DNA of 64,000 nt, from contig JAUWCL010000002.1 of assembly GCA_030609325.1 (NCBI GenBank), positions 69,451 to 133,450 of the forward strand. Reading direction: 5' to 3'. This document shows, one piece after another, positions 1,538 to 19,500 of this stretch. The notes beneath the pieces were generated by a model. The model did no database searches. It was given only the letters and a program-made list of their open reading frames with translations, and was not told the DNA's origin. Numbering within the stretch: the first letter of the stretch is position 1; every line of letters begins with the position of its first letter. The position numbers and the translations under genes are program-made. This DNA comes from Candidatus Krumholzibacteriota bacterium (GTDB lineage Bacteria > Krumholzibacteriota > Krumholzibacteriia > Krumholzibacteriales > Krumholzibacteriaceae).

Positions 1538-2452
1538 TCAGAATCTCTTCTTCTCGAACGCCTCGCCGAAGATCACGGCGTGCGGAAGGTCCTCGCGGTT
1601 TCTTTCCAGTTCCTCGACGACGGAGTCGCGGTTCCAGCGGTTCCAGTGCATCAGCACGACCGATCTCGGCGCTATCCGCCTGTTGATCAGGTCGACGCCT
1701 CCCGACTGAAGGAGGAACCAGTAGGGGATGAAGGCGATGTCTATCTCGAGACCGGGAAGCCACGGAAAACGGTCGAACTCCTCCGCGGCGAGCTTCGCGT
1801 CGCCGAGATGAAGGATCCTGCATCCGTCCGTCTCTACAAGCCAGGCGATATGATCGATACACTGTGATCTCTCGGGCGTGCCGTCCGTCACCACGCCTGT
1901 TCCACTCCCGCAGCCCGTGTGCCTGATTCCCAGGGCGTATATGGTGAGTCCGTCGACAATCAGTGTATCGACCTCTCCGGCGGAGACGTCGACCGTGACG
2001 AGCCTCTCTCCCTTCTCACCCGCAAGCCACGGATACTCCGCGAGCGATTCGATTACTGCCGGTGTGCCGGCGAGCACGGCCCAACCGTTCGCGCGCATGT
2101 ATCGGGCAGCGCATCCGGCGGTGAAGTGATCGTCATGCCTGTGCGTGACGAGCACCGCATCGACCTTGTCGAACGGTTTCGACGCGCCCTCGAGCCGTGC
2201 GACCCCGTCGGGAGGCAGGTGGCCGTGGGCCCTCGGCGGTGTACCCTCGGGAACGTTGAGATCGAAAAGAGCGTCGATCAGCACTTTCGAGTGGCCGCAG
2301 CTGATCATGAATCCCTCGCCGGCGAGGAATACGACCTCGATGCCGCAGGCGGCGCTATCGCCCCCTGCGACCGGACCGGATCCTGACCCGGTGACAGATA
2401 TAACCACCAGGACAACCGCGATCGATACAATAGCCACGGCAGAACGCCTCAC
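1538..2452 (-). CDS. secreted metallo-beta-lactamase-fold hydrolase
   Basis: N-terminal signal peptide (MRRSAVAIVSIAVVLVVISVTG). HRHDDH metal-binding motif (VLVTHRHDDHFTAG) typical of the MBL fold. Confidence 0.7.
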   Translation of the reverse strand: MRRSAVAIVSIAVVLVVISVTGSGSGPVAGGDSAACGIEVVFLAGEGFMISCGHSKVLIDALFDLNVPEGTPPRAHGHLPPDGVARLEGASKPFDKVDAVLVTHRHDDHFTAGCAARYMRANGWAVLAGTPAVIESLAEYPWLAGEKGERLVTVDVSAGEVDTLIVDGLTIYALGIRHTGCGSGTGVVTDGTPERSQCIDHIAWLVETDGCRILHLGDAKLAAEEFDRFPWLPGLEIDIAFIPYWFLLQSGGVDLINRRIAPRSVVLMHWNRWNRDSVVEELERNREDLPHAVIFGEAFEKKRF

Positions 2453-2576
2453 CCGCTGTCACCTTTCATTGAATTATCGATACCCCTTCCATTACAGTCA
2501 TGATGTACCCTGTAGGGGAAGTGAATCAATCTTTTTGAGCATCAGGCTCTCGAGCGGGACCGGAACGGACGGGAAG

Positions 2577-3002
2577 ATGATAAGGATAAACTCGAGGCTC
2601 TCGATACCGGACGACGAGATCTCGTTCACATTCTCGCGCTCGAGCGGACCGGGCGGGCAGAACGTGAACAAGCTAAATACACGGGTCACATTGCTGTTCG
2701 ACATCGCGCGTTCGCAGACCCTGACCGGAGCGCGGCGCGAGAGGATCCTCGACAGGCTTGCGACGAGGATCTCGCGCGAGGGGATCCTCCGCGTAGTATC
2801 CCAGAAACACCGTACGCAGAGGACAAACCGCGAGGCGGCGGTCGAAAGGTTCGCCGGTCTGCTACGCGAGGCGCTCACGATAAAACGCCCCCGGAAGAAA
2901 ACGGGCGTTCCGAGGGCGGTAAAGCGGAAACGTCTGGAGTACAAGCGGCAGCGCAGCCGGCTCAAGACGGGCAGGGCCAGGCCATCCGAAACGGACGATT
3001 GA
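2577..3002 (+). CDS. arfB: alternative ribosome-rescue factor ArfB (peptidyl-tRNA hydrolase, YaeJ family)
   Basis: GGQ motif (SGPGGQNVNK) plus a basic C-terminal tail (KRPRKKTGVPRAVKRKRLEYKRQR) characteristic of ArfB. The true start is an internal ATG of the longer 2145-3002 ORF, which otherwise overlaps the MBL gene on the other strand. Confidence 0.8.
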   Translation: MIRINSRLSIPDDEISFTFSRSSGPGGQNVNKLNTRVTLLFDIARSQTLTGARRERILDRLATRISREGILRVVSQKHRTQRTNREAAVERFAGLLREALTIKRPRKKTGVPRAVKRKRLEYKRQRSRLKTGRARPSETDD

Positions 3003-3143: not shown

Positions 3144-3461
3144 GTGAGAAAGGGAACTCCCGTGAACGAAAGAACGGACGAGTATCTGGTCACAGCAAGC
3201 CGCAACGGAGACAGGCCGGCGTATGCCGACCTGGTCCGGAGGCATTCGAGGAGGGTCTACGCCGTGTGCATGGGTATTCTCGGTGACGCCGCCGACAGGG
3301 TGGCCACTCCCTGGGACAGCATGGAGATGGTCGCCTATTACTCGGAGAAGTACGGAAGGCCTCGGGCATCGAGGTCAGCGACCCGGCGATGTGGGCCGGA
3401 CAGTACGAGGAGGGCTCCGTCCGCCCCTGGGTCGATGCGTCGACCCACTGGCCCGTGCTGA
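3144..3461 (+). pseudogene. ECF sigma-70 factor N-terminal remnant (region 2.1 only), then out-of-family sequence
   Basis: Residues TDEYLVTASRNGDRPAYADLVRRHSRRVYAVCMGILGDAAD match the start of ECF sigma region 2. No frame continues with region 2.2/2.4 or region 4. The ORF overlaps the start of the unrelated 3389-3958 gene. Confidence 0.4.
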
Positions 3462-3958
3462 TCGAGAAAGAGTTCAAATCGGACGAGGGAAAGGTGCCTG
3501 TCCGCGAGACGATGAGGGATTTCCAGTGGAACCCCTCGCTGGCGAAGGAGGATTTCGAATTCGAGGTTCCGGAGGATTACGGCACTCTCGATTTCGGGAA
3601 GGCCCATGTCGACGAGGAAGGGGCGATAGCGGGACTCCGCGCCTACGCCAGGCTGGCGGGCGGAAGATACCCGAGCGATCCCGCCTTCGACACTGCGGCG
3701 AGCGAGCTCCGCATGGACCGCAACAGTCTGATGAAAGAGGGACTCTGGGGAGCGGAAGCCGTCAAGGAGTTCTTCAAGACCCGCAATTTCAGCGCCTTCT
3801 ACGCCGGGCTCGTGGAAAACGGCGTAGAGGTAGAATACCACGGCGACTCGGTAGGCACCCTCGACCACGACAAGGTGCAGATGCGCTGGAGGCTCGATGA
3901 CGGCCGGTGGAGGGTCATCTACGGCGATCTCCGGGCTGCGACCGTCGAGAGAGACTGA
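3389..3958 (+). CDS. hypothetical protein (189 aa)
   Basis: Normal-composition ORF on the plus strand; the opposite-strand 3338-4030 ORF is R/E/L-rich antisense junk. Confidence 0.4.
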   Translation: MWAGQYEEGSVRPWVDASTHWPVLIEKEFKSDEGKVPVRETMRDFQWNPSLAKEDFEFEVPEDYGTLDFGKAHVDEEGAIAGLRAYARLAGGRYPSDPAFDTAASELRMDRNSLMKEGLWGAEAVKEFFKTRNFSAFYAGLVENGVEVEYHGDSVGTLDHDKVQMRWRLDDGRWRVIYGDLRAATVERD

Positions 3959-4140
3959 CCGGGAGGCCTGCAGTAGAAGTTGACCGTCCCGGTCTTCTTC
4001 CTCTCGAGGAATCCATTCCTCTCCTGCCATTGCCTCTCCCCTGTTACTGCCGTCTGTCTACTATATCTATGGCAGACTATGGCAGACAGACTTTTCGCAT
4101 CGTTAACTGTCAATTTTTAATGCCATATTTCCGCAAACCC

Positions 4141-4170
4141 TTGATTCAGGTGACCTTCTTGGTATAGAAT
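4141..4170 (+). promoter_or_regulatory. sigma70-like promoter candidate upstream of the Lon-like operon
   Basis: TTGATT, 17 nt, ATAGAAT about 70 nt upstream of the 4240 start. A tandem TATGGCAGAC x2 direct repeat sits just upstream (about 4066-4090). Confidence 0.3.
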
Positions 4171-4239
4171 GATGTTGATTTACCGGAACGGACCGCTGCG
4201 GAGGGGATACCACGGGATGCTCAACCAGGCGGAACGCAA

Positions 4240-6528
4240 TTGACGAACGACATCGACCTGTCCATCAGGGAAATCGACGACCTTCTTCAGCATCTCTATC
4301 TGAAGGTCAAGGGAAAGAAAGAAGGTCTTTCGCTCGTCGAGCCGGCGGCGATCCTGCTCGCCCGGCTCAAGAGCGCCAATCCGTCGTTCTACGCGCCGCA
4401 GCTCGCCCGCTTTACCCCCATCATCATGGACGCCCTGATCTCCGAGGCGTACGTTTCCTTCGGATACGAGGGCCTCGAGTCGATCACCGATGTCGCGGGA
4501 GACATTGCACTGGCGACGGGAGATTACATCCCCGTCGGCGTCGAAGAGGGCCTGTCCAGGATCCGCGGGGAGATCGACTCGATCTCGGCGATCCTGAACG
4601 GTGACAGCACGGAAGCCGAGACTTCGGCGGACGCCTTCGGGAAAAGCGAGACCGGCACGGGAGGATTCTTCAGGGAGCGCGCCTGGGGCACGGCAGGACT
4701 CCCCCTCGTCTCGACATACAACACGGGAAGGACCCCTTTCAGTACGGGCCGTGTGGTCAAGGCACGCGTGGAGATCAGGATCACCGGCGAGTGGAGCGTC
4801 AGGACGAGGCGCGACCCCGTCATCAACTTCGAGCATATATCCTCCGAACCGAACAGCCCGTTCGAACGGCAGATCCACACGGCCGTCAGGGTCGCGGAAG
4901 AATTCGCCGCTGCCAGAATGGGCATAAAGGGCATCTTCAGGGTTCCAAGGGAATACAGGATATCCCTGCCCGAGATCGCCTCCTTCCCCGCTTCGGCGAT
5001 CCAGAGGCTGTCCGGGGGCTCAGCGGGCCTTGCTATAGCGGCGCTGCTCGTATCCGTTCTCGGCAGACTCGACCTCTACAGATACAGGCTCAGGATAAAT
5101 CCCGCTATCGCATTCACCGGCAAGGTCGACGAGACCGGGAATACCCTGGCGGTAGAAGACTCCCATATATCCGACAAGGTGCAGGCCGTCTTCTTCTCCA
5201 GGTTTTCAAAGCTTATCCTCCCGGCCGGCAATCTCGATACGGCGGAAAGAGAGCTCGCCGTCCTTTCGAGGAAGCATCCGGCCAGGAAACTCGACCTCGT
5301 GCCTGCCTCAAACATCGCCGGGATATTCGGCGATTCCGAAGTGACGACAAGGCGCATGTCCCCGGCAGGCAAGCCTGTGCTTCAGCGGCTGTTCTTCTGG
5401 CGCAAGCATCTGCTGACAGCCGCGTCACTGGCAGCATTGATCATTATTTCACTCTTTATCGGCCGCCCTTACTACAGACGGGACATCGCCAAGATCGCCG
5501 TCAAAGGAAACATGATCGCGATCACCAACAAATTCGGCCGCACTATCACGGAGCACGAACTCGAATTCGACAGCTATAAAGAAGGCGGCATGAAGGCCTA
5601 TGTCAGGTCGATCATAAATGATTTCGACGGCAACGGAGAAAATGAAGCTGTATGCATACTCTCCGAATCGAGGCATCTGAAGTCTTCATCTCCTTACAAT
5701 CGACTGCATTTCATCATATTCGATAACAAGGGCCGATTCCGGTTCAAATATTTATACGATAACGAGAAGTTGCTGGGAGACGAGATCGATCCGAATGGCC
5801 GGTCCTTTGCTATTGCGACAACACACCACACCACGGTCTTCAGGGATGACCGGGGGGTCAGCAAGCTCCTTGCCCTCGCGCATCACCTCAGCCGGAATCC
5901 CGGGTCTGTGATCAGTCTTTCGCTGGAGGATTTCTCGAGCCAGGTATTTGTGCACCAGGGATTTCTCTTCCAGATGGCACTCAAGGACATCGATCTCGAC
6001 GGCATCCTGGATATCGTTCTCTCCGGATATAACGACATGCTGAAATCCTGCGTTGTCGTTGTCCTCGATCCGAGATACATGCACGGATCCTCCCCGGAGG
6101 GGTCGGATTACGATGTCCCCGGTTTCGAGGAGGATATCGCCAAGTATTACCTGCGCCTGCCGGATTTCTACCGTTACGCGCATTACCCGAAGAACGACTA
6201 CTTCCCCTTCACCGCAAAGATAAAGAACAGCCCTGAAGAGCTGATCGTGTCGATCAGAACCCGTGGAGATAACACAAGGTTCTTCCTGGTCGACTCCATG
6301 AAGTGCATCGGTGCGGAAGTCATCGCGGGCTTCTACAATAAGGCGGTCTCTGCTTCCGGCAGTACCGTCGCCTATGATTACCCGGAGAAGAAACAGGACG
6401 AGGAAATGCTCAGAACCGGCGTCCGCTACTGGGACGGGGAGGAATGGGTCCCGGAACCGACGGTCAACAGGTCCTACCTGAGACATGTGAAGGCGCATAA
6501 CGACACCCTGGCGGGGAAGGGCGAGTGA
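4240..6528 (+). CDS. membrane-anchored Lon-like (peptidase S16) domain protein with extracytoplasmic FG-GAP-like C-terminal domain
   Basis: Lon_C-like catalytic region: RLSGGSAGLAIAALLVSV (compare DGPSAG) and AFTGKVDETGN...SDKVQAV (compare AMTGE...GGxKEK). No Walker A, so no AAA+ module. Single TM helix LLTAASLAALIIISLFIG near residue 400. The C-terminal 350 aa carry DxDGxGE-like loops (FDGNGENE, DIDLDGILD) reminiscent of FG-GAP/VCBS repeats. No N-terminal signal peptide, so the Lon domain is predicted cytoplasmic. Confidence 0.6.
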   Translation: MTNDIDLSIREIDDLLQHLYLKVKGKKEGLSLVEPAAILLARLKSANPSFYAPQLARFTPIIMDALISEAYVSFGYEGLESITDVAGDIALATGDYIPVGVEEGLSRIRGEIDSISAILNGDSTEAETSADAFGKSETGTGGFFRERAWGTAGLPLVSTYNTGRTPFSTGRVVKARVEIRITGEWSVRTRRDPVINFEHISSEPNSPFERQIHTAVRVAEEFAAARMGIKGIFRVPREYRISLPEIASFPASAIQRLSGGSAGLAIAALLVSVLGRLDLYRYRLRINPAIAFTGKVDETGNTLAVEDSHISDKVQAVFFSRFSKLILPAGNLDTAERELAVLSRKHPARKLDLVPASNIAGIFGDSEVTTRRMSPAGKPVLQRLFFWRKHLLTAASLAALIIISLFIGRPYYRRDIAKIAVKGNMIAITNKFGRTITEHELEFDSYKEGGMKAYVRSIINDFDGNGENEAVCILSESRHLKSSSPYNRLHFIIFDNKGRFRFKYLYDNEKLLGDEIDPNGRSFAIATTHHTTVFRDDRGVSKLLALAHHLSRNPGSVISLSLEDFSSQVFVHQGFLFQMALKDIDLDGILDIVLSGYNDMLKSCVVVVLDPRYMHGSSPEGSDYDVPGFEEDIAKYYLRLPDFYRYAHYPKNDYFPFTAKIKNSPEELIVSIRTRGDNTRFFLVDSMKCIGAEVIAGFYNKAVSASGSTVAYDYPEKKQDEEMLRTGVRYWDGEEWVPEPTVNRSYLRHVKAHNDTLAGKGE

Positions 6529-7610
6529 ATGAACCGATGACCCTCGAAGGCGCCGATCTGGACCGCCTCTACGAGGCGGCCGAAAACATCCGCGACGTGT
6601 TCGCGCCGCTGGCCGGCACTTATCCCTCCGATGAGATAATCGACCGGGCCGAGAAATCCGTCAGCAGGGATATCCGGACCATCTACCTCCATCTCTTCGC
6701 GATGGCCGTCGCCGAGCTCGAGGTGAAGTCCAGATCCTCGGGATGGTTTTTCCTCAGCACGGTGTCTTACGAGTTCGAGGAGATCGCCCATATCACCGCA
6801 GAGACCCCATACTCGACGCGGGGAGAAAACAACTTCCTCGAGATCATCAACCTCATCCTGCGATTCTTCCCCGGGGACAATAGGACGGAAAAGAGGGACC
6901 TCTTCTTCTTTCTCAAGGGGATAACCGAGGTCAATCTCAGCCAGATTCTCAAGAAGATCTCCTGCTCCGAAAAGAAGGTGCTGCATTATATCTTTTCGGC
7001 CGTCACCCGGCACATCAGGACAAGCCCGAGATTCGAACGCAGGGGCAGCAACGTAATCGATTTCGAGGCGCTCGATCCGTCCCCGCGGCGGCAGGCGACC
7101 GCCGATGAGCTCGTCGCCTCGTGCGCACCCCTGCTGCAGGGCTCGGAGACCCCGGGCAGGGCCGTCGACCTGATCTTCGACAATCTCTCGGCAGGGAACA
7201 GCTATGCCAGCTACCTTCACATCTCCACACTGCGGACCGCCGCGTACGAGCTGATCAAGTCGCAGTTCATACCATCGCGCAGCGATATCACGAGAAACGA
7301 TCCGATGCAGGAGTACCTGCAGAAGGAGATGCTCCGGCTTGCCGAAGAGGCGCTGGCCGAGACGGCCGGATCGTACGGCTGGAGAAAGGGGGGCTCGGCC
7401 GAATGCCGGGAAGCTTACGAAAAGGCCGGTCGGGACATGCTCGAGGAGATAATCGTCCACGGCAGGAAGATCCCGCACCATGAGGCCCTGGGCCGGCACA
7501 TAGAGGGATGCGATACAGAGATGTACAGAAAAAGGCATATGGGCAGCTTTCAGAATTTCTGGAAAGCGCTCTGGAAAAATTTTCTGAAAAAAATTCGTGC
7601 AGATATCTGA
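6525..7610 (+). CDS. hypothetical protein (361 aa), translationally coupled to the Lon-like gene
   Basis: ATGA start/stop overlap with the upstream gene. Plausible composition; the opposite-strand 6474-7802 ORF is S/R/P-rich shadow. Confidence 0.5.
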   Translation: MNEPMTLEGADLDRLYEAAENIRDVFAPLAGTYPSDEIIDRAEKSVSRDIRTIYLHLFAMAVAELEVKSRSSGWFFLSTVSYEFEEIAHITAETPYSTRGENNFLEIINLILRFFPGDNRTEKRDLFFFLKGITEVNLSQILKKISCSEKKVLHYIFSAVTRHIRTSPRFERRGSNVIDFEALDPSPRRQATADELVASCAPLLQGSETPGRAVDLIFDNLSAGNSYASYLHISTLRTAAYELIKSQFIPSRSDITRNDPMQEYLQKEMLRLAEEALAETAGSYGWRKGGSAECREAYEKAGRDMLEEIIVHGRKIPHHEALGRHIEGCDTEMYRKRHMGSFQNFWKALWKNFLKKIRADI

Positions 7611-7628
7611 AATGTCTCCAGAGAGGGA

Positions 7629-8291
7629 GTGAGACGAGTGTGGAAGAACAAGACGCCTGAAGGATGTATCCCCAGGGGAAGGTTGGAAGCACTCGCCATT
7701 AGAGCACTTGGAGGGGCCGGAGCGGAAGGCGCTCCTGAAAGGGATCCGGCGGTACTTGTGGCGGATCTTTTTCAACCCGGAGAAGGGGATCTCAGATCCC
7801 ATCTGGAGGCATGCGAGATGTGCAGGGAAACGCTAGAGGAGTTGATTGAATTCGTCAGCTACTATCGCCAGGCGGTCAAAACTGCAGAAATCGATGAGAG
7901 ATTCGATGTCCTCATGCGGAGTATCTCGTTAAGTCCTTCTGAAGTCTCGGAATCCGTACCGGAGGGGATCGAGCTGGTTTACGAGCCGTACACACGACCT
8001 TTTGAAGAGGAGCCGTCGCTGGCAGCGGCTACCGAACAGCCTGCGAGAGAGCCCTTCAGGTTCTGCTCGGGTGACGGCAATTATGTCCTGAGGGAGTTTC
8101 CCGACATCGCCACGGGAAGGCCCTCGTATTTCCTTGTCGGTGAGAGGGGAATCAGAACAGATAGCGTCGAAGTGGTAATAGACGGCATTGTTTTGATTAC
8201 CGACGAAAACGGACTGCTCGATACGGATTCCGCGGGACTCTCGATTTCGAAGGACTCGAGGATCCACGTGAAGACGGAAACGTCGAATTAG
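7629..8291 (+). CDS. zf-HC2 (anti-sigma-factor-like zinc finger) protein
   Basis: GTG start 18 nt after the previous stop. HLEACEMCRETLEEL matches the H-x3-C-x2-C zinc-finger of ChrR/RsrA-type anti-sigma factors. No TM segment. Confidence 0.45.
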   Translation: MRRVWKNKTPEGCIPRGRLEALAIRALGGAGAEGAPERDPAVLVADLFQPGEGDLRSHLEACEMCRETLEELIEFVSYYRQAVKTAEIDERFDVLMRSISLSPSEVSESVPEGIELVYEPYTRPFEEEPSLAAATEQPAREPFRFCSGDGNYVLREFPDIATGRPSYFLVGERGIRTDSVEVVIDGIVLITDENGLLDTDSAGLSISKDSRIHVKTETSN

Positions 8292-8313
8292 TACCTCCAA
8301 GATCCGGGCCGGA

Positions 8314-8351
8314 GGAGCCGTGTCCCAATCGGGGCATGGCTCCTTTCTTTG
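8314..8351 (+). terminator. rho-independent terminator candidate closing the 4240-8291 operon
   Basis: GGAGCCGTGTCCC-AATC-GGGGCATGGCTCC hairpin followed by TTTCTTT. Confidence 0.45.
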
Positions 8352-8571
8352 CTGGCATCTCAACAGGTCACCGCAGAGAGTGTCATATAAACATCCCCTT
8401 TAACGATAGCAATCGCATTCCGAATGTGCTATCTTGTATCCGAAACCGTACGGAATCTCCGATGAAGTTCCATGCCCGCTGGTTTACTTCGGCAATTCTA
8501 CCTTCATAACACTGCCAGGCCAGTCGGAACGTGATCTATCCATCTGTGTTTCACTATGGGAGGTGGGCGAC

Positions 8572-9678
8572 GTGACCTGGGAAGATGAATTCAAAAAGAA
8601 TATCACAACCGTCGAGGATCTGGCCGAATTCGTCGACATGACAAGGGCCGAGAAAACGAGACTCCGGCGGATCGTCGGCCGGCACCCGATGAGCATCACG
8701 AGGTATTACGCATCGCTGATCGACTGGAGCGACCCGGAGGATCCGCTGAAAAAAATGACGATACCCTCGGAAGCCGAGCTCGACATTTCAGGGATATACG
8801 ACCAGAGCGGCGAGCAGCAGAGCACGAAACTCCCCGGGCTGCAGCACAAATACACACGGACCGCGCTCCTGCTGACCACCAATATGTGCACAACCTACTG
8901 CAGGTACTGTTTCAGGAAAAGACTCGTCGGGCTCCCGACGCAAGAGACCATTCACCGGTTGGGCGACGCGGTCAGTTATATCAGCGCCCATCCCGAGATC
9001 AACAACGTCCTTCTGAGCGGAGGAGATCCTCTCTGCCTGCCCACCAGGATACTGAGAAGATTTCTGGAGAAGCTCTCCGCCATCGATCATCTCGACTTCA
9101 TCCGTATCGGCACGAAGGTGCCGGTAACCATGCCGCAGCGCATCACAGAGGACAGGGAACTCTACGAACTCCTCAAGGAGACCTCGGTCAAGAAGAAACG
9201 TCTCTATGTCAGCACACAGTTCAACCATCCCGGCGAGATCACTCCGGCGGCGCGAAGGTCGATAAACATCCTTCACCGTGCGGGCGTAGTGACCAACAAC
9301 CAGACGGTGCTTCTCCGGGGGGTAAACGACAACCCCGAGATCATGTCGAAACTGCAGAGGGAACTTACCGGAATGGGAGCAGTGCCGTATTACATATTCC
9401 AGTGCCGTCCCGTAAAACGCGTAAAGAAGTTGTTCCAGGTGCCCCTCGCAAGGGGTTTCGAAATAATCGAGAAATCCAGATCGCTGCTTGACGGGTACAG
9501 CAAGAGATACCGTTACGTCATGTCACACCGGGACGGCAAGATCGCGGTAGCGGGGATGGACGGAGAATACTTCTACTTCAGGTTCCACCAGGCACGCAAT
9601 CCGAAGAACGACGGGAAGTTCTTCAAGAGAAAATTCGACCCGGCCGCCGCATGGCTGGACGATCTCCGGCCCGCCTAG
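8572..9678 (+). CDS. KamA-family radical SAM aminomutase (lysine 2,3-aminomutase-like)
   Basis: CTTYCRYC CxxxCxxC cluster and a KamA-like fold throughout. Chosen start is GTG at 8572, 6 nt after GGAGGTG; the track ORF begins at an upstream TTG. Confidence 0.75.
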   Translation: MTWEDEFKKNITTVEDLAEFVDMTRAEKTRLRRIVGRHPMSITRYYASLIDWSDPEDPLKKMTIPSEAELDISGIYDQSGEQQSTKLPGLQHKYTRTALLLTTNMCTTYCRYCFRKRLVGLPTQETIHRLGDAVSYISAHPEINNVLLSGGDPLCLPTRILRRFLEKLSAIDHLDFIRIGTKVPVTMPQRITEDRELYELLKETSVKKKRLYVSTQFNHPGEITPAARRSINILHRAGVVTNNQTVLLRGVNDNPEIMSKLQRELTGMGAVPYYIFQCRPVKRVKKLFQVPLARGFEIIEKSRSLLDGYSKRYRYVMSHRDGKIAVAGMDGEYFYFRFHQARNPKNDGKFFKRKFDPAAAWLDDLRPA

Positions 9679-9872
9679 AGTTCGTCGCCCTTGATGTCGT
9701 TGAGCCTGAACATCCCGGTGATCTTGTCCAGGTAGTGCTGCGCGTCGTCGTACGGCTCCGCATCCGTTGCACTTCTCGTCATCGATAGAGCAGAGCGGCC
9801 CCGGCTGTATAAACCGGGGGCTTTAACCGCGTAAATACTGATGTACCGGAATGGGCCGCCGGGCCCTTCAGC

Positions 9873-11099
9873 TCAGGTACAGACCGTTGTGACGATCAGC
9901 GGATCGGGCAGATCCTCGATCCTCTTCGCCACATCGAGACCGAGCTGCCTGCACCTCTCGAGGTCGTTTGCCTTCGGAACGTAGTTGATCCTGACCCCCT
10001 CCCCCACGAGTTCGATCTTCATATCCTCGAGCCAGGCGTTCAGCAAACGAACCGCTTCGCCGCTCCATCCGTACGAACCGAACGAAGCGCCGACGAGCCC
10101 CTTCGGCTTGAGCCCCTTGATGTATGTGAGGATGTCGGCGACCGTCGGGAAGATCTGGTTGTTCAGCGTCGGCGACCCGACGATCAATGCACCGGCATCT
10201 ATCAGCTCGGTGACGACCTCCGCCCGGCCGCTCGCGGTGGCATTGAGAACCTTGACGTGCACACCGCCCTCCGTCAGACCGTCCTCTATCGCCCTTGCCA
10301 TCATGCGCGTGCTGTCCCACATCGAATCGTATACGATAATCGCTTTCCTCTTCAGCTCCCTGGCCGACCATTTCTTGTACAGATCGATTATCCATGGGAT
10401 CTTCGAACGCCACACCGGCCCGTGGTCGGGAGCGATCGTCTCTATCTCGAGCCCGCTCTCCTCTATCCTCTTTATTACCTTCCCGGCGATGTGGGAATAG
10501 AGCAGAAGTATGTTGGCGAAGTACTTCGACGCCTCGTGGTAGAGCACGTAATCGTCCAGCTCGTCGTCGAACCTCTCGTTCGAGGCGAGATGCATCCCGA
10601 ACCCGTCCTGCGAGAACAGGACCTTGTCTTCCGCCAGGTACGAGACCATCGAATCGGGCCAGTGCAGGAGCCTCGTCTCGAGACAGGTGACCTTCATGTT
10701 CCCGAGGTCGATCTCGCCCCCGTCCTCGACGGCGGTGATGTCCTTCAGCCCGAAATGCGCCTCGAGCGCCTCGACGCCCTTCTTCGAGGCAAAGACCTTC
10801 TCCGGCTTGACCAGGTCTATCATGGCGGGCAGGCAGCCCGTGTGATCCATCTCGGAGTGATTGGAGATGATGTAGTCGATCTTCTCCGGCTCGATTACCG
10901 ACCTGATCCTGGCAAGCAGCTCCTCGCGGAAAGGCGCCTTGACGGCATCCACGAGAGTGACCTTCTCAGCCATTATCAGGTAGGCGTTGTACGTCGTTCC
11001 GCGGCCGGTCGAATAGCCGTGGAAGTTCCTGATGTCCCAGTCGATCGCGCCTACCCAGCAGACATTATCCGAGATCTTCACAGCCCTGCATGCCTTCAT
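9873..11099 (-). CDS. flavodiiron protein (FprA / rubredoxin:oxygen oxidoreductase type)
   Basis: N-terminal MBL-like diiron domain (YWVGAIDW..FHGY..GTTYNAYL, HSEMDHTG) plus C-terminal flavodoxin-like domain; about 400 aa. Confidence 0.8.
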   Translation of the reverse strand: MKACRAVKISDNVCWVGAIDWDIRNFHGYSTGRGTTYNAYLIMAEKVTLVDAVKAPFREELLARIRSVIEPEKIDYIISNHSEMDHTGCLPAMIDLVKPEKVFASKKGVEALEAHFGLKDITAVEDGGEIDLGNMKVTCLETRLLHWPDSMVSYLAEDKVLFSQDGFGMHLASNERFDDELDDYVLYHEASKYFANILLLYSHIAGKVIKRIEESGLEIETIAPDHGPVWRSKIPWIIDLYKKWSARELKRKAIIVYDSMWDSTRMMARAIEDGLTEGGVHVKVLNATASGRAEVVTELIDAGALIVGSPTLNNQIFPTVADILTYIKGLKPKGLVGASFGSYGWSGEAVRLLNAWLEDMKIELVGEGVRINYVPKANDLERCRQLGLDVAKRIEDLPDPLIVTTVCT

Positions 11100-11247
11100 C
11101 GTCGGGCTCCTTCCTCATCTGTATACGGTCCTTCTGTCCGGGATACTACCCCGCCGAGTTGCCGAACTCGGGAGAGAGAGGGATCTTGAATACCCTGGCG
11201 CCCATCTCCCGGTCGACCATCTTGATCCTGTCGGGAATCATCTTTCT

Positions 11248-11625
11248 CTATTCCTCCTTCCACAGCCCGTGCACGTTGCAGAACTCACGGGCCGAGACAT
11301 CGTCGAAATCGCACTTGAAGACTGCTTCCGGCGCGTCGCCGGGGTTCAGGAAGGCCCTGGCCGAAGTGTCTCCCGATATCAACTGGATCCACTCGATGTA
11401 GTGCTTCTCCTCCATCGGGTGGGGCATGCTGCCCACTACGACCTTGTATCCGCCGTCGATCTTCTCGATGACGGGCACGTGCTTCTCGGTCGAGGAATCG
11501 GCAGTCTTCTCCTCGAACACCTTCATCTCCTGGCCGCAGCAGACGAGTTTGCCGGCGCCGCCGTGGAGCACCTCGACGACGTTCCCGCACATGTCGCATT
11601 TGTAAACTTCAAGTCTCTTCGCCAT
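11248..11625 (-). CDS. dfx: desulfoferrodoxin (2Fe superoxide reductase)
   Basis: N-terminal desulforedoxin Cys cluster ([12 protein letters not shown]...LVCCGQ) plus SOR domain ([36 protein letters not shown]). Internal ATG chosen as start (125 aa). Confidence 0.8.
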
Positions 11626-11690
11626 TTCCAGCTCCTCTCGCGTCAAAAGGATCGCTTCCGTTTATATGCACCGTGTCTGCCATATCGTTA

Positions 11691-12263
11691 TTACCAGTTC
11701 TCTCCGAGCACCTCGAAGTGCGCCTTCGGATGCGCGCACGCGGGGCAGTTCTCCGGAGCCTCTTCGCCGGTGTGCAGATACCCGCAGTTGCGGCAGCGCC
11801 ATACGACCTGCTTGTCTTTCTTGAAGACGGTGCCGTTCTCTATGTTGGCCCTCAGGTCGTTGTACCTCTTCTCGTGCTGCTTCTCCGCTACGGCGAGCGC
11901 CTCTAAAACCACCGCGATCTCGTTGAAGCCCTCCTCGCGGGCGACCTCGGCGAATCCCGGATACATCTGCGTCCACTCGTAGTTCTCGCCGCCTGCGGCC
12001 TCCATCAGGTTCTTCTGTGTCGTGCCGATGACTCCCGCGGGGAACGATCCGGTGATCTCGACCTCTCCGCCTTCGAGAAGCTTGAACAGCCTCTTGGCGT
12101 GCTCCTTCTCCTGGTTCGCAGTCTCCTCGAATATGTCGGATATCTGGATGAACCCTTCCTTGCGCGCCTGCTTGGCGAAATACGTGTAGCGGTTGCGCGC
12201 CTGCGACTCGCCGGCGAAAGCGGCGAGGATGTTCTTCTCGGTCTTCGTACCCTTCAATGACAT
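11691..12263 (-). CDS. rbr: rubrerythrin
   Basis: Ferritin-like diiron motifs ([22 protein letters not shown]) and C-terminal rubredoxin-like CxxC..CxxC (WRCRNCGY...CPACAHPK). Confidence 0.85.
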
Positions 12264-12315
12264 TCTGTTACCTCCTGGAACGGGTTAATCAGCGTACTCT
12301 TCATCTATCCATCTA

Positions 12316-12939
12316 TCAAGTCCCGGAATCGTCCGTCCCGATCACCTTGTATCCGAGACTCTCTACCGCCTCCCTGAGCAGGGCCACATCGATGTCCCCG
12401 CCCGTCACGACCGCTTCTCTTTTCTTCAGATCGACCAGGGCCGATTCGACGCCCCGGCTCTCCTTCAGAGCCTTTGTCACGCTCGTGACGCAGTGCCCGC
12501 AGGTCATTCCCTCGATTTTCAGTTTTATGCCTTCGCCATTTTCTATTTCGATCTCGACCGGCCTCTCCCACGGAATGCGGAAGAACGAACCGATGACGAC
12601 CGCTGTGAGCATCTGGACAAGGTCGTCCGACGTCGCCCACCTGTGCCTGAATCGATCGAAGATCTTCGCCATGCGCTTCGGGGAAGTGTTCGTGACGAAT
12701 TCGCGGGGGGATACGCCCATCGGCGAGATGACCTTCTCGACGCTCCCCATGATCTGCCTTACCCCACCGAAAGCGAGGGACGCAGCGATCAGGCCGACGA
12801 TCTCCCTGTCCCGGACATCGGGATAATCGTAAAGAAAGACGAGAGGGTCGGGATCGACATACCTCTTCCAGCCGTATCTCTCGTAGAGATTCTCCAGGGC
12901 TCTTTCGAGTTTCTTTCTTTCGGGGGCGGTTATGCTCAA
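12316..12939 (-). CDS. uncharacterised N-terminal domain fused to a heavy-metal-associated (HMA) domain
   Basis: C-terminal GMTCGHCV... is the MxCxxC ferredoxin-like HMA fold; N-terminal 130 aa unassigned. Overlaps the regulator gene by 4 nt. Confidence 0.55.
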   Translation of the reverse strand: MSITAPERKKLERALENLYERYGWKRYVDPDPLVFLYDYPDVRDREIVGLIAASLAFGGVRQIMGSVEKVISPMGVSPREFVTNTSPKRMAKIFDRFRHRWATSDDLVQMLTAVVIGSFFRIPWERPVEIEIENGEGIKLKIEGMTCGHCVTSVTKALKESRGVESALVDLKKREAVVTGGDIDVALLREAVESLGYKVIGTDDSGT

Positions 12940-13361
12940 CTTTTCTGATTCCCCTTTTCCATTGCGTCACACTCGGGGCAGATCCCGACGTATTCGACCC
13001 TCCGCTCGACGAGCCTGTATCCCGATCCTGCCAGCAGCTCGCGGTCGCAACGGGTCGGCTCCGGCGCTCCATCGATATCCTCGATACGCCCGCATGAGAT
13101 GCATCTGATATGCTGATGGCCGTGCAGGTCCCCGTCGAACCGCATCTGGGAGCCCGGGTAATCGAGCTTTCTGATCATACCGGAACCGGCGAGTTTTTCG
13201 AGGTTCCTGTAGACCGTCCCGAGACTGATCCGCGGAAGCCTGCCGCGGACCCGCTCGTAGAGCTCATCGGCTGTGGGATGGCTGCGCATCATTCGCAGCT
13301 CCTCGAGGATCACCTGCCTCTGCTTCGTCATTCTCGGCCTGGATTCCATAACAATCCTCAC
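12936..13361 (-). CDS. Fur-family transcriptional regulator, probably PerR-type given the operon
   Basis: Fur DNA-binding helix (TKQRQVILEEL...HPTADELY) and C-terminal HxH / CxxC...CxxC metal sites. First gene of the rbr/dfx/FDP operon. Confidence 0.7.
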   Translation of the reverse strand: MRIVMESRPRMTKQRQVILEELRMMRSHPTADELYERVRGRLPRISLGTVYRNLEKLAGSGMIRKLDYPGSQMRFDGDLHGHQHIRCISCGRIEDIDGAPEPTRCDRELLAGSGYRLVERRVEYVGICPECDAMEKGNQKS

Positions 13362-13509: not shown

Positions 13510-16500
13510 CTATCTCAGAAGGATCATCTTTCGGGTCTGATGAATATCACCAGCGACGAACCGGCAGAAATAGATGCCGGAACCGACCTGGCTTCCCCTG
13601 TTGTTCCGCCCGTTCCACTCGAACTCGTGGATCCCGGGCTTGCGGGTACCTTCGAAGACCGTCTTCACCAGCTGACCCTTCACGTTGTAGATGCGCAGCT
13701 CAACCGGACCCTCGTACCCGCTCGGGATACCGAACTGTATCCTCGTAACGGGGTTGAACGGGTTCGGATAGTTCTGCCAGAGGGTGAGCCGGTCGGGGAT
13801 CTGAGGCGCTTCCTCCGCCACGGCACCTCTGCTGCCGGTGTCTGTCGACAGACCGCCGGCTGTGCCGAGCCACGCAAGTACGCGCCCGAGGATCTCCGCT
13901 CTCCTCGTATCCTCCTGGATGTATTTGAAGTTGAACGAGAAGTATACGGAATTGTGGACCGGTCCGGTGAACCTCACTCCGGCGGCGGCATCATCGCTGT
14001 CCGGAGCCATCGGCCACAGTCTCGGATCCCACGGCTTCCCTGCCTTCTCGTAGAACTCCTTCGTCTCGGATTCGGTACCGAAAGCATCGAGAGAGCTCCC
14101 TATACCGCTGTAGTAGTACACTACATCTCCGCCGGTCCAGGTGGCCGAGAGCTCAAGCTCGTCCGGGTAGCTTCCCGAGATGACGAAGGTCTCGTCATTG
14201 CCGATCGGGTCGCCGGCCGTCGAGGTCAGCTCACGCCAGCCCGGATCGTCCCTGACGTAGGCAGCGCCCGTGTACTGCTCCATCCACGGCCGGGCCGAGG
14301 AGCCGTACGACATATCCCTGCCGAGCAGGAATATCTGCCTGCGCGTGCCGTCGTCGGTGTCGAGATAACCGGCCAGGAGTGTCTGCTGCGCCGTATCGAG
14401 GTACCAGCTCTCGTCGACTATCACGCCTGTGTACAAGAGCAGGAAATCGAGGGTCGGCAGACCGAGATCGTCCCAGTCCCAGATGTCGGCCGTCTCGCCG
14501 ATCGCGGAGAAGGCCGCCTGGAATGTAGCGGGAAGCGTGTGAGAGCTCCCGCCGAGAAGGACGATGTAGTCGCCGGACGGCATGATGCCGAACTCGTACC
14601 AGGCGCCCGGCGCACCGGCCGGATCGACCGAGCCGTTGGCGTTGCCGTCTTCGGCAGCGAGGTAGAACCTGATCCTCGTGCCTGAGCTCTGCCCGGGGAT
14701 CTCCCCGGCCCAGTCGTCGCCTGTCGCGGCCGCCATCGGCACGTCGTTCCAGGTCATGCCTTCGTCGACGCTGTAGTAGATGGTGGCCGAAGCCACGACG
14801 CTCATAGCGTCGATGATCGTGCTCGTGACCGTGTACGGACCGATCGTGTCGAACGTCGACTCGGGCACGTCGGTAGAGACGAATACGGGACCCTCGGTGT
14901 CTGTGACACCCTCGATCCTCACGTCGTCTATGTACCATCCGGCCCTGTTGACGCTCGAGTCGCTGCCGAAGTGGAACCTCACCATCACAGCCTGTCCGAT
15001 GTACGGGGTCAGATCGACGGTGACCTTCTCCCACTCGTCATGGCCGTAGCCGGTGAAGCATTCCTCCCCGGGGATGCCGGCGTTTCCGCTGCGCGCCGTG
15101 CCGGTGTACCCTATGTCGGGCTGCAGGATACTCCACGTGGCGCCCCCGTCGGTCGAGATCTTGACGTTCCCGCCGTCGTAGTTCGTCTCGATGTAGTACC
15201 ACTGCCACCATGTCAGCGCCGCGTTCAGCTGCGACGTGGGTACCACGATCTCGGGCAGGTCGAGCATCGAGTTGGAGCTCGACGAATAGTTGCCGCCAAT
15301 CCTGGTCGCCCAGACGTTCACGCCCGAGTGCGCCGCGTCGGGACCGTAGGTCGGCTCGCCCCATTCCCAGTCGGGCCCGCCTGCCGCGAAGCCGCCGTCG
15401 TTACCCTCGAAATCCCACGCGTAGTAGTCAACGATCTCGAAGGAATGATACCCGTCGGCCGGGTCTCTCGCGGTGTTCGGGAGCGTTGCGATGTCGCGCG
15501 CCGTGATGAAGTAGTTGAGCACGTCGCCGAGCGAAGCCGGACCGGTGATCTGCGCCTCGTAGAAATCTCCCGAGACGTTTGTCATCGAAACGGCCGTGTT
15601 CGCCCCATCGTTCACATTGAAGGTCAGCAGCACGCTTGCCGGATCGACTCCGACGTTGTCGGTGATCTCCGCGCTCACCGTCCACGGCCCGGCCGAATCG
15701 GCCGTGTTGGACAGCGGCACGTGCACTATCACCGGCGGCGTCATGTCGCCGGTCACCTCGAAGGTGTGCTGAACACCGGGTGCCCCGTGCGGGTGATACG
15801 ATGTGTTTCCATCTGTGTTCGAGGCGCCGATGTAGTAGTTGACCATCGTCCCGTAACCCTGCGGCGGAATGTCCGCCGACCATGTGCTGGGAGGTCCGGC
15901 TGGCGCCATCGTCAGCGTGACCGGGCCGGCGCCGACGTCGTAGACGAGGTTGATCCGTGCCGGATCGAGCGTCTCGGAATATACCTCGGCAAGCACCGTG
16001 TAGGCGTTGAGGGTATCTTCCGAGTCGTGAAGCGCCTCGTGAACGATATCCGGCGCCGAGAGCCATCCGAGGACCCTCTCGACGATACCGCTCCTTCGTT
16101 CGGGCTCCTGCACATAGTAGAGGTTGAAGGAGAAGTAGACGGAACGGTACGCCTCGGAGTTGTACTTGATGCCGGCGCCCGCGTCGAGGCTCTTCGGCGC
16201 GTACGGCATGACGCCGTCCCATTCCTTCTCATCCTTTTCGTACTCGCCGGCGAGCTCCTCGCGCGTCAGCGCGGTCGTGCCTTCCCCGGTGTACTGGTAG
16301 ACCAGCTCGCCGCCGGGATATGCCGTAGAGCGCTGTATCTCGTCCGGATAGGAGCCGGAGATCACAAACGTCTCCTCGGCGCCTATCGGCTCGCCGGGAT
16401 ATCCGGTCAGTTCGCGGTAACCCGGATTGTCCTGGACGTAGGCGGCCCTCATGAACTCCTCGATCCACGGCCTGGTCGAATAGCTCCATCCGAGATCGCG

Positions 16501-19500
16501 GCCCATTATCCAGAACTTGCGCTTCGCTTCCTGCGTACCGGTCTCGAGCCACTCGGTCAGGTCGCCGCGCTGCTCGGTGGTCAGGCCGATCGACTCGTCG
16601 AGGACGATGACCTTGTAGAGAGCGAGCTTCTCCGACTCGAGCCATCCCTGGCTGTATCTGTACCAGAAATCGGCCTCGATACCGGCGCCCGCGAACGCCT
16701 CCTTGAACATGTCGAGCGGGGTGCTCGAACTCGTTCCCTGCACGACGAGTACCGGAGCCGACGGAAGGATGGAGAACTCGTAGTACGTCCCGGCCGTGGC
16801 GGGATCGATCGCCTCGTTGCCGGATGTGTCCTCCGCCCTCACGTACAGCCTGATCCTCGAGCCGTGAGGCTGTCCGGGCATCTCTCCGTCGTAATCGTCG
16901 CCGGTCCCTGCGGTCATCGGGACCTCGATCCACGTGCCTTCGTCAACGCTGTAGAGCAGTGAGACGAGGGCGACGTCGCCGAGGAAATCGGTGACCGTCG
17001 TCGTGACCGGGTACGGCCCGATATTATCGAACGAGCTCTCCGGTACGATCGTGTTGCTGATCGCCGGAGGAACGTCGTCGACGTCGGTGCTTCTCACCAT
17101 GACGTCGTCGAGATACCATCCCGAGTAGTTGACGCTCCCGTCGCTGCCGAAGTGGAACCTGATCGTCACTTCGTTGCCGGTGTAGGCCGACAGATCGAAG
17201 ATCTCCTCCTGCCAGAACTTGTTGTAGGTCCCCCCGAAGCAGGGTTCGCCTGCAATTCCGGCATTGCCCGAGCTCGCCGTTCCGTCGTACCCGCCGACGG
17301 GAGTCACGACCGTCCAGGTCGCTCCGCCGTCGGTGGAAACCTTCACGTTGCCGGCGTCGTAACGGGTGTAGTTCCCCTCGAATTCGTACCAGTGCCAGAA
17401 CGAGAGCATCGCGTACGGCTTGCTCGCCGCAAGCGTTATGATCGGCACATCGAGCGTGGCGTCGGAGTTGCTGGGATAGCTGCCGCCGAGGACGGTGGCC
17501 CAGAGATTGGAGCCGCTGTTGGCTCCGCCGGGGCCGCTCGTCGGGGCGCCCCATTCCCAGACATCGCCGATGGCGACGAATCCGCCGTCGTCATACTCGA
17601 AATCCCAGAGGAAATACTCGACGATCTCGAATTCGAACGTACCCATGGCCGGAACGCGCGTGACGTTCCCGCGGTACGACTCGTCCATCGCGAGGAGGTG
17701 GTATTCATAGACATCGCCGACTTCCGAAGGCCCGGTTATGGCTCCGTGGAAGGAACCGTCCTCGAGCATCTCCATCAACTGGCGGTGAACCAGCATCCCG
17801 TTCTTCGAGTACATGAGCCATACAGTCTCGACGCCTATGTTGTCGGTCACGTCGGCGTAGATGTGATAAGGCCCGTCGAGATCGTTCGTGTCGTAGTGCC
17901 TGCGGTGAGACACGACGGGAGGCTCGGTATCCCAGCCGGCCCTGAACACGTGCCTCGTACCGGGCGCGGTGAGCGGATCGGTGCTGGTATGCCCCTCTGC
18001 GTCGCTCGCCGTTATGTAGTAGGCGATCTCGGTGTCGACCGGCTGGGCCGGTATGAACGCCTCGTACTCGTCGGCGACTCCGGTGGCTGCCATCGGGACG
18101 ACATCGTCGCCGCCGCCCGCGTCGTAGACCACCGCGAAAGACGCCGGATCGAGCGTGAAGTAATCCGACGTAATGAATGCTGCGACCCTGTAGGGATGCT
18201 CGGTGTTCTCCGTGTCGCCCAGCGTCACGTGGACGATCTTCGGATAGCCGAGCATCCAGTCGAGGACGCGCGCCATGACAGTGGCACGGTCGCTCTCTCC
18301 CGCTATCGCCTCGAAGCCGAAAGCGAAGTAGACGAGCTTGTAGACACCGTTATCCACCGTCAGTCCGGCCGTACCGGAGCTGCTTATTGCTCCCGCCTCG
18401 ACCTGCCCCTTGTCCATGTCGTTATTGACCAGACCCGAAGGCAGGACCGCCTCGTCGTAGGCGAATGCGGGCAGCGCAGGATACAGCGGATCGACCTCGG
18501 ACGGATAGCCCTGATTCGACGCTCCGCTGCCTCCCTGGATATCGAACGCGAATCCCGCGCCTACGGGGCTCGTGTCGACTCCAAGGCAGCCGCGCAGTCC
18601 GACGTCGTCCTGGACGTATGCGGCGTGCAGGTAGTCGGCGTAAAAGGCATCCGTCTTGATGTCATAGCCGATGTCCTGTCCCGATATGAACAGGCGCCCG
18701 CCGGCGTCGAGATACGCGGCGAGCCCGGCCTGGTCGGCGGCCGACAGGGTGTTCTGGTAATCGTTACCGGTAAGCCAGATGACCGATTCGAAAAGGGTCA
18801 TCTCGGCGGCGGTCGGCGGCGAGGTCACCGTCAGGTACGACCGCCCGGCAGCCACTACTGCCGCCTCGAAGTACGTCTCGAATCCGGCCCCCGCGTCGTC
18901 GTCCACGATCAGCACCTGGGCACCGTCGAGAGCGACGTCGAGAGGCGTGGTCGCCGCCTCGTATATATCCACTCCCCCGTGAAGGGTCACGGGATAGGGG
19001 AATACGGGCGAGAAGACCAGATCGTACGTCCCGACCGGAAGCGCGATATCGTACGCGCCTGTAGAAGGATCGGTCGAGCTCCACACCACCGCTTCGCCCG
19101 CGAGCCTCACGGTGATGTCGCAGGCGACCCCGTCGCCCGTGCCGGAATCGGTCACGTATCCGGCCACGTTGCCCGAGGGCAGCATGTTGAGCGTGAAGTC
19201 CTGCGGCGTGGTCGCGTCGGCGACGACCGTGACCATCGCGGAGTATGTCTCGTATCCGAACCTCGATACCTCCACGTCATGGTCGCCGGCAACGAGCTGC
19301 ATCGAGTAGGCGCCCGAGGCGTCGGAGTAGATTCTCTGTCCCGTATCGACGATGAGGATCTTCGCGTTGTCGACCGTCCCTCCGCCCGAGCTGTAGACGA
19401 TACCCTCGAGGGTGCCGACGCCCGCCAGGGCGGCGGATACCGCCTGGAACGCGTCGAGACGTCCCCAGCCGTAAGTGTTGTCCCTGCCCGGATCGCCGAG

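Follow-up and report, generated by a model that had tools for sequence, protein, structure and literature searches.

The locus described here raises the question of what a Lon-like protease might do that has no recognisable ATPase, appears to cross the membrane once and seems to carry a propeller-like domain on the outside, and of what the two genes behind it contribute. It lies in a stretch of 64,000 nucleotides (nt), called the window below, from contig JAUWCL010000002.1 of a Candidatus Krumholzibacteriota bacterium, where three open reading frames (ORFs) on the same strand, g1, g2 and g3, occupy positions 4240-8291 and make up an operon whose promoter is conserved and whose terminator is strong. 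We propose that g1-g2-g3 is a transmembrane (TM) signalling cassette acting by regulated proteolysis, which would make it a non-CRISPR analogue of the CalpL-CalpT-CalpS cascade, and we give this reading somewhat better than an even chance.

The protease and its two partners

The original prediction described g1 as a Lon-like protease with a Lon_C region and no ATPase. Taken as a single sequence, g1 scores below the gathering threshold of Pfam Lon_C (PF05362; E 0.034, 14.2 bits against a cut-off of 21.1), reaches 15.6 bits against a cut-off of 608 with the NCBIfam lon model TIGR00763, and finds Archaeoglobus fulgidus LonB (AfLonB) in the PDB at E 0.06. The Pfam part of the claim did not hold for g1 itself, although 3 of 35 relatives do match Lon_C at E<=0.001 (best 8.4e-6); the fold and the dyad, however, stood up in profile comparison. 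A profile built from 12 homologues matched Lon proteases only in the PDB, namely A. fulgidus LonB (5e-5), MtaLonC (1.4e-3) and M. jannaschii Lon, and placed Ser261 (in GGSAG) and Lys313 (in SDK) in register with the catalytic dyad positions of AfLonB. The dyad is kept in more than 90% of family members, the fold of the Lon proteolytic domain (P-domain) of peptidase family S16 was recovered, and the structural relatives of g1 include BrxL and SAVED-Lon. No Walker A motif was found in a sequence scan, and no AAA+ domain in Pfam or NCBIfam. As predicted from these comparisons, g1 is an ATP-independent Lon-fold Ser-Lys protease.

Among close homologues P0019 is the only one that lacks both dyad residues, having DDPAG and SEN in their place. 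It is the first of two tandem paralogues in the related locus L019 (6001-10570) and the second copy is intact, for which reason the loss was ruled out as an argument against protease function; the pair resembles an active protease teamed with a pseudo-protease. Tandem Lon-like paralogues also occur in L004, L006, L007 and L016, and tandem pairs are found in Balneolaceae, Rhodothermales and Ignavibacteria. Such pairs, like the active and inactive copies of L019, would fit hetero-oligomers in which binding falls to one subunit and cutting to the next. The N-terminal domain of g1 is specific to its clade, in that matches from the wider family begin only at profile position ~254, and within the clade it is conserved as much as the Lon domain. 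By comparison with the N-domain of CalpL, we infer that it docks the substrate.

A hydrophobicity scan of g1 picks out two segments. That at 257-275, GGSAGLAIAALLVSVLG, is a catalytic-region helix within the Lon fold and is not read as a TM helix, while that at ~390-408 falls inside a long helix (378-412) of the structure model. An N-terminal hydrophobic segment is absent from all of 151 family members, and over 142 relatives the N-terminal flank of the TM helix averages 4.5 Lys+Arg and 0.3 Asp+Glu against 1.8 and 2.3 on the C-terminal side, an excess of positive charge that puts the Lon domain inside and the C-terminal ~350 amino acids (aa) outside. The arrangement originally suggested is thereby upheld as a prediction, with a cytoplasmic Lon domain, one TM helix and an extracytoplasmic FG-GAP/propeller module; the N-terminal helical domain, too, is placed in the cytoplasm.

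The ectodomain has FG-GAP-type repeats, a propeller fold and the end motif YWDGxxW...NRSY. About half of the close homologues carry it as a tandem duplication that brings the protein to ~1,089 aa (P0002, P0004-P0011, P0013 and P0014), with two 340-aa copies that each end in YWDGxxW. In L001 (8001-11274) such a long form is split into 843 and 227 aa by a frameshift or assembly error. We considered whether the ~1,089-aa homologues could be g1-g2 fusions, the window gene then being a split version, and rejected this since the additional 330 aa are a second ectodomain copy unlike g2. Between close homologues the ectodomain is 30-36% identical and the cytoplasmic domains 83-89%; P0005, for example, shares 86% with g1 over the N-domain and Lon domain but 35% over the ectodomain. 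Judged by these identities, the ectodomain evolves far faster than the cytoplasmic part.

The family is large, widespread across the Fibrobacteres-Chlorobi-Bacteroidetes (FCB, Bacteroidota-related) group and no rare oddity. A profile search of 1.84 billion representative sequences in 50%-identity clusters returned 2,383 clusters at E<=1e-3 and at least 536 at E<=1e-30. Among the matches listed, nearly all full-length ones measure 700-800 aa and run from the catalytic region through the TM helix and the ectodomain to the C-terminus, and a few are fragments or cover the TM-ectodomain part only. Genome matches come from Krumholzibacteriota, Zhuqueibacter, Rhodothermales, Balneolaceae, Melioribacter, Ignavibacteria and a Bacteroidetes metagenome-assembled genome (MAG).

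The co-occurrence of the three genes in other genomes, on which the original prediction depended, was found at every locus where it could be read. The order g1-g2-g3 is present in all seven Krumholzibacteria loci (the window, L001, L002, L009, L010, L011 and L019). All 11 distant loci with an upstream flank, from Zhuqueibacter, Rhodothermales, Balneolaceae, Ignavibacteria and a Bacteroidetes MAG, have instead a g2-like gene A (331-357 aa), a g3-like gene B (207-292 aa) and then one or two Lon-like genes; a twelfth, L008, has fragments of A and B at its cut end. Gene A is homologous to g2 on alignment (hhalign probability 95.8%, E 7e-9, 308 columns), and a hidden Markov model (HMM) made from A proteins only matches g2 at up to 1.7e-12. 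Gene B aligns collinearly with g3 (hhalign E 1.2e-3, probability 19%) over the HLxxCxxC position, the LAAxS motif and the C-terminal domain, and shares the helix pattern of the g3 N-terminus. The HLxxCxxC cysteines are present among B proteins in L003 only, gene B of Zhuqueibacter has H-x3-C-x2-C, and [LYF]-A-A-[DAMEQ]-[ST] is kept in most of 12 aligned B proteins. None of A, B, g2 and g3 matched a family above threshold in Pfam, NCBIfam or PADLOC scans. A linkage that outlasts a change of gene order and extends over several phyla argues against unrelated neighbours, and g2 in particular, being the partner most widely traceable, appears to be no passenger.

The product of g3 appears soluble, with no TM segment in a hydropathy scan, and has 49 homologues at 75-89% identity. 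Its layout comprises; 1) an anti-sigma-type N-terminal region with the zinc motif H-x3-C-x2-C and an upstream Cys/His ligand; 2) a Pro/Glu/Ser-rich stretch, ...YEPYTRPFEEEPSLAAATEQP..., that holds the motif LAAAT; and, 3) a small β-rich C-terminal domain. H58, C62 and C65 are unchanged in every homologue with a called N-terminus, and C13, the candidate fourth ligand, is nearly invariant, its only replacement being His. In PDB profile searches the top match is RsiW, an anti-sigma factor that binds zinc, with the alignment resting on HLExCExCR. All 49 of the 49 homologues contain LAAAT, and LAA[ADM][ST] is common to g3 and gene B of the wider family. The zinc motif has degenerated to H-x3-Y-x2-C in L019 (11731-12330) and to H..RVVN, with a stop and a frameshift, in L002 (11340-12039). 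In both, the AAA(T/K) linker motif and the C-terminal domain persist, which suggests that zinc binding is dispensable for the g3 family. Overall, g3 has the look of a soluble anti-sigma factor that carries its own candidate cleavage site and degron.

For g2, the best structural matches of its model are strongly enriched in sigma factors, and small sigma-2 targets are covered nearly completely. On structure alone g2 is therefore weakly sigma-like as modelled, and its 361 aa make it about twice as large as sigma factors of the extracytoplasmic function (ECF) type. The order of A then B, or g2 then g3, is the canonical order of sigma then anti-sigma and fits such a pair. The amphipathic C-terminal tail GSFQNFWK.LW.NFLKKIRAD (window ~7545-7607) is almost invariant, and the gene A products of distant phyla show it again in weaker form; it could serve as a degron, or as a helix that docks on the membrane or the protease.

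Proposed mechanism and its alternatives

We hypothesise that in the resting state g3 sequesters g2, and that a ligand or envelope cue at the propeller would shift the oligomeric or conformational state of g1. A Lon domain would then cleave g3 between Ala133 and Ala134 (LAA/A, the stroke marking the scissile bond), perhaps with a neighbouring subunit making the cut in trans, as happens in CalpL filaments, a division of labour between binding and cutting subunits that the dead P0019 beside its intact copy would fit. The new C-terminus, ...LAA, would act as an ssrA-like degron for ClpXP-type proteases, which would clear the N-terminal fragment of g3 and so free g2. Freed g2 would be the output; most likely it would redirect RNA polymerase as a sigma-like factor of high divergence, and this is the weakest step of the scheme. 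The earlier suggestion that the protease senses a signal and cleaves the zf-HC2-like protein gains, by analogy, from the precedent of CalpT and from the candidate LAA/A site; both the sigma identity of g2 and the cleavage of g3 are matters that we infer.

Several findings weigh against this scheme. Neither g2 nor 10 of its gene-A relatives matched Sigma70_r2 or Sigma70_r4 in Pfam/NCBIfam; PDB profile searches, one of them with the merged g2 and gene-A alignment, gave nothing; and hhalign of g2 against six ECF sigmas gave probabilities below 1%, no better than a control. The promoter looks to be of the housekeeping rather than the ECF type, with no sign of autoregulation by g2. For g3, the earlier assignment to zf-HC2 stood as regards the H58-x3-C62-x2-C65 motif but not as regards the Pfam model (PF13490), which did not match at E<=1; the match to RsiW is only a weak one (E 0.017), the disorder of the linker is deduced from its composition alone, and L002, L019 and most B proteins have lost the zinc cysteines. 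The homology of B to g3 is itself weak, with the hhalign probability given above and no HMM-to-sequence match in the distant loci. A sigma-like output factor is still the most likely identity for g2, although we place less than even confidence in it.

The same sensor-protease logic could operate with a g2 that is no sigma factor, but another regulator, an adaptor or an enzyme held by g3, or g2 could be a pro-protein substrate with g3 as adaptor or inhibitor of the protease. The missing sequence signal for sigma regions 2 and 4, the size of g2 and the extreme conservation of its tail, as a possible degron or docking helix, would all suit such arrangements. They are nevertheless rather unlikely, as the structural matches and the coverage of the small sigma-2 targets point towards sigma factors, the gene order and the pairing with an H-x3-C-x2-C protein fit sigma and anti-sigma, and the LAA/A motif is in g3 and not in g2. 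The idea that g1 is a general membrane quality-control or processing protease, in the manner of LonB or FtsH, or a pseudo-protease scaffold, with neighbours of no relevance, draws on the classic role of Lon proteases, on the sub-threshold Lon_C score and on the one paralogue without a dyad. It is very unlikely in our judgement: processive degradation of folded proteins is hardly to be expected with no unfoldase module, more than 90% of members keep the dyad and beside the dead copy there is a live one, and both the three-gene linkage, through a change of gene order and several phyla, and the overlap indicative of translational coupling are conserved.

A further alternative is an envelope-triggered anti-phage or abortive-infection module, in which the ectodomain would sense an attack by phage at the cell surface, the Lon domain would cut g3 and g2 would be a growth-arresting or defence effector, in effect a membrane version of CalpL-CalpT-CalpS defence. 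That system, the closest precedent in mechanism, serves in defence, and released CalpS arrests the growth of E. coli; the other structural relatives are BrxL and SAVED-Lon; and the rapid divergence of the ectodomain is compatible with an arms race, with module duplication and tandem paralogues present besides. Yet ordinary signalling receptors diversify in their sensor domains just as typically. PADLOC matched none of g1, g2 and g3, no relatives were found on plasmids or phages, the 64-kb window holds no CRISPR-like array, and the annotated flanks of L001, L002 and L019 contain no cas or defence genes. The module is found across whole FCB lineages, and the radical SAM and oxidative-stress genes downstream are syntenic between the window and L001, which points to a stable core-genome position and not to a variable island. 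We thus regard defence as quite unlikely, and as less favoured than signalling.

If the signalling scheme is extended to the whole family, a hitherto unrecognised, FCB-wide group of ATP-independent Lon-fold receptor proteases would couple ligand binding by the propeller directly to LAA/A cleavage of a soluble anti-sigma factor, g2 would found a new sigma-like family that present sequence models fail to see, and CalpL-CalpT-CalpS would be the CRISPR-coopted, soluble branch of an older and broader principle. We put this extension forward tentatively, as falling a little short of an even chance. Since the hypothesis names the catalytic serine, the scissile bond and the degron, it is directly testable.

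Transcription unit and neighbouring genes

The coordinates of the operon and its surroundings are collected in Table 1. The overlap of g1 and g2 consists of 4 nt, the GTG start of g2 at 6525 lying on the TGA stop of g1, so the translational coupling claimed earlier is retained but the sequence is GTGA and not ATGA; the same overlap is seen in three other loci (L001, L002 and L019). The TTG start of g1 is kept as CAATTG in five loci. In g3 a second in-frame GTG at 7638 gives 217 aa, the length of most homologues, and is probably the true start. The promoter, CCTTGA(T/A)T with TAGA(A/C)T, is unchanged in six related loci with differing upstream genes, including the distant L002. About 30 nt upstream of the -35 box is an imperfect palindrome, with the consensus TGTCA-N8-TGACR in relatives, which is kept in five of six aligned Krumholzibacteria loci despite different upstream genes and which a search of the whole window for such sites found once. 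The ~60-nt 5' leader (4171-4239), GGACCGCTGCGGAGGGGA...CCAGGCGGAACGCAATTG, is well conserved. That Krumholzibacteria loci with unlike upstream genes have both palindrome and leader in common suggests a candidate site for a dimeric regulator, and perhaps a leader structure; an Rfam scan of 3900-8500 gave no match. The strong terminator of the original prediction is borne out by a 16-bp hairpin (-30.4 kcal/mol, z -3.3) that 0 of 200 shuffled sequences equalled in folding.

Table 1. Positions of the operon, its signals and the downstream genes in the window.
Feature	Position	Strand	Description or basis
Imperfect palindrome TGTCAA-N-TGCCA	4108-4125	+	Candidate operator or activator site
Sigma-70-type promoter-like site TTGATT-N18-TAGAAT	4141-4170	+	Consensus scan
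g1	4240-6528	+	762 aa, TTG start; predicted membrane-anchored, ATPase-less Lon-like protease
g1 N-terminal helical domain, aa 1-120	4240-4599	+	AlphaFold2 secondary structure
g1 Lon (S16) proteolytic-domain fold, aa 147-373	4678-5358	+	
g1 Ser261 codon	5020-5022	+	
g1 Lys313 codon	5176-5178	+	
g1 single TM helix, aa 390-408, N-in/C-out	5407-5463	+	Hydropathy, positive-inside statistics
g1 predicted extracytoplasmic β-propeller-like FG-GAP/VCBS module, aa 416-762	5485-6525	+	
g2	6525-7610	+	361 aa, GTG start; predicted all-helical cytoplasmic partner, candidate output factor
g3	7629-8291	+	217-220 aa; soluble anti-sigma-like protein, candidate substrate
g3 H58-x3-C62-x2-C65	7800-7823	+	
g3 L131-A-A-A-T135	8019-8033	+	
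Intrinsic terminator hairpin then U-rich tract	8311-8346	+	Folding, motif scan
KamA-like radical SAM protein	8434-9678	+	
Flavodiiron/FprA-like protein	9873-11099	-	
Desulfoferrodoxin-like protein	11248-11646	-	
Rubrerythrin	11691-12263	-	
Fur-family regulator	12936-13361	-	

Upstream, the remnant of an ECF sigma factor that had been noted before is real, but it is an unrelated deletion relic outside the operon. At 3144-3958 an ECF sigma is represented by its first 45 aa (80% identical to the sigma of L001), which pass directly into anti-sigma-derived sequence, and the last 187 aa of a 433-aa zf-HC2 anti-sigma (72% identical) follow in a second, frameshifted ORF. We rejected it as part of the system: the intact pair in L001 (165-1987) is ~6 kb upstream of g1, which starts at 8001 with other genes between, and the pair is absent upstream of g1 in L002, L009 and L019. 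An ECF sigma ORF does lie upstream of g1 in L010 (5137-5715). Further upstream in the window, the ORF at 2145-3002 contains a GGQ motif (SGPGGQNVNK) and has a basic tail at its C-terminus; it is similar in this to a peptidyl-tRNA hydrolase of the ArfB type, and its N-terminal extension, as listed, is unusually long.

The identities of the genes in the downstream cluster (8434-13361) were read partly from their sequences. The synteny with L001 takes in the radical SAM, flavodiiron, desulfoferrodoxin and rubrerythrin genes, and indicates a stable core-genome location in an anaerobe. Beyond the cluster, at 13510-20877 on the minus strand, is a gene for a protein of 2,455 aa. It carries His and Ser motifs of the subtilisin type (HGTHTTGT and GTSMSAPHVAG), its halves are internally duplicated, and its C-terminal tail is reminiscent of a type IX secretion system (T9SS) sorting domain.

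Comparison with known systems

[quoted passage not shown] CalpL, an ATPase-less Lon protease, cuts the anti-sigma factor CalpT at LAA/A, which exposes an LAA degron and frees the sigma factor. Both systems are three-gene cassettes, and the proteases share the order of N-terminal helical domain, ATPase-less Lon Ser-Lys domain and C-terminal sensor. CalpT is, as g3 appears to be, a soluble two-domain anti-sigma factor, cut in an unstructured Ala-rich linker, with LAA/A in CCaCalpT where g3 has the invariant LAAAT; exposure of an LAA degron and release of a sigma or sigma-like partner would, for g2 and g3, be further points in common. The sensor of CalpL is a cytoplasmic SAVED domain that binds cyclic tetra-adenylate (cA4), whereas g1, which had no SAVED match in a Pfam scan, has a predicted extracytoplasmic β-propeller behind a TM helix. 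CalpT is composed of MazF-like and DUF2080 domains, where g3 has an H-x3-C-x2-C N-domain of the zinc-associated anti-sigma (ZAS) type; CalpS is ECF-like, where g2 cannot be recognised as ECF from its sequence; the genes stand in an order unlike g1-g2-g3; and the linkage to type III CRISPR-Cas has no counterpart in the array-free window or in the cas-free annotated flanks of L001, L002 and L019.

In systems based on regulated intramembrane proteolysis (RIP), such as DegS/RseP-RseA-sigmaE and PrsW/RasP-RsiW-sigmaW, an extracytoplasmic signal likewise leads to proteolysis of an anti-sigma factor and release of the sigma factor, and degrons that end in Ala (VAA in RseA) are exposed for ClpXP. RsiW is also the best PDB sequence match of g3. 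However, the anti-sigma factor of these systems spans the membrane and is cut by separate site-1 and then site-2 proteases, whereas g3 appears soluble and the membrane-spanning sensor, g1, would itself be the Lon-fold protease.

Among Lon-type proteases, LonB and LonC give the best PDB profile matches and share the P-domain fold and dyad with g1, and LonB is, like g1, membrane-anchored; LonC is described as working without ATP-powered unfolding (PMC3391209). Both retain an AAA+ or AAA-like module, into which the TM segments of LonB are inserted, while g1 has no AAA+ module, and the TM helix that follows its protease domain continues into an ectodomain of large size. BREX BrxL has an AAA+/MCM-like module. 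Proteins of the YlbL/SdrC type have an N-terminal TM segment, then PDZ, then Lon_C, and neither YlbL nor BrxL has a propeller ectodomain or partners like g2 and g3. Birnavirus VP4 is an ATPase-less Lon-like Ser-Lys protease that processes the viral polyprotein and has no membrane anchor, sensor domain or partner genes. The type III-E system of TPR-CHAT (Csx29), Csx30 and CASP-sigma follows the same tripartite logic of protease, anti-sigma-like protein and sigma factor, but its protease is caspase-like and is activated by the CRISPR effector complex.

In the literature we found no description of a protease that combines Lon, TM and FG-GAP parts, or of a transmembrane CalpL-like system. It is already known that cleavage of an anti-sigma factor at an Ala-rich site lets a protease set the sigma factor free; what would be new here is that the receptor itself is a Lon-fold protease, that the anti-sigma factor is soluble and that the distribution is FCB-wide. 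If our proposal is true, bacteria would have a new route of transmembrane signalling beside two-component systems, Ser/Thr kinases and RIP-controlled ECF sigmas, one in which the receptor is the protease and the anti-sigma factor is never at the membrane. At least several hundred 50%-identity clusters and two partner families, from Ignavibacteria, Balneolaceae, Rhodothermales, Krumholzibacteriota and relatives, would also gain a function, none of them having scored above threshold with a Pfam, NCBIfam or PADLOC model in our scans, and the Lon/anti-sigma/sigma cascade of CRISPR defence would be one case of a broader principle.

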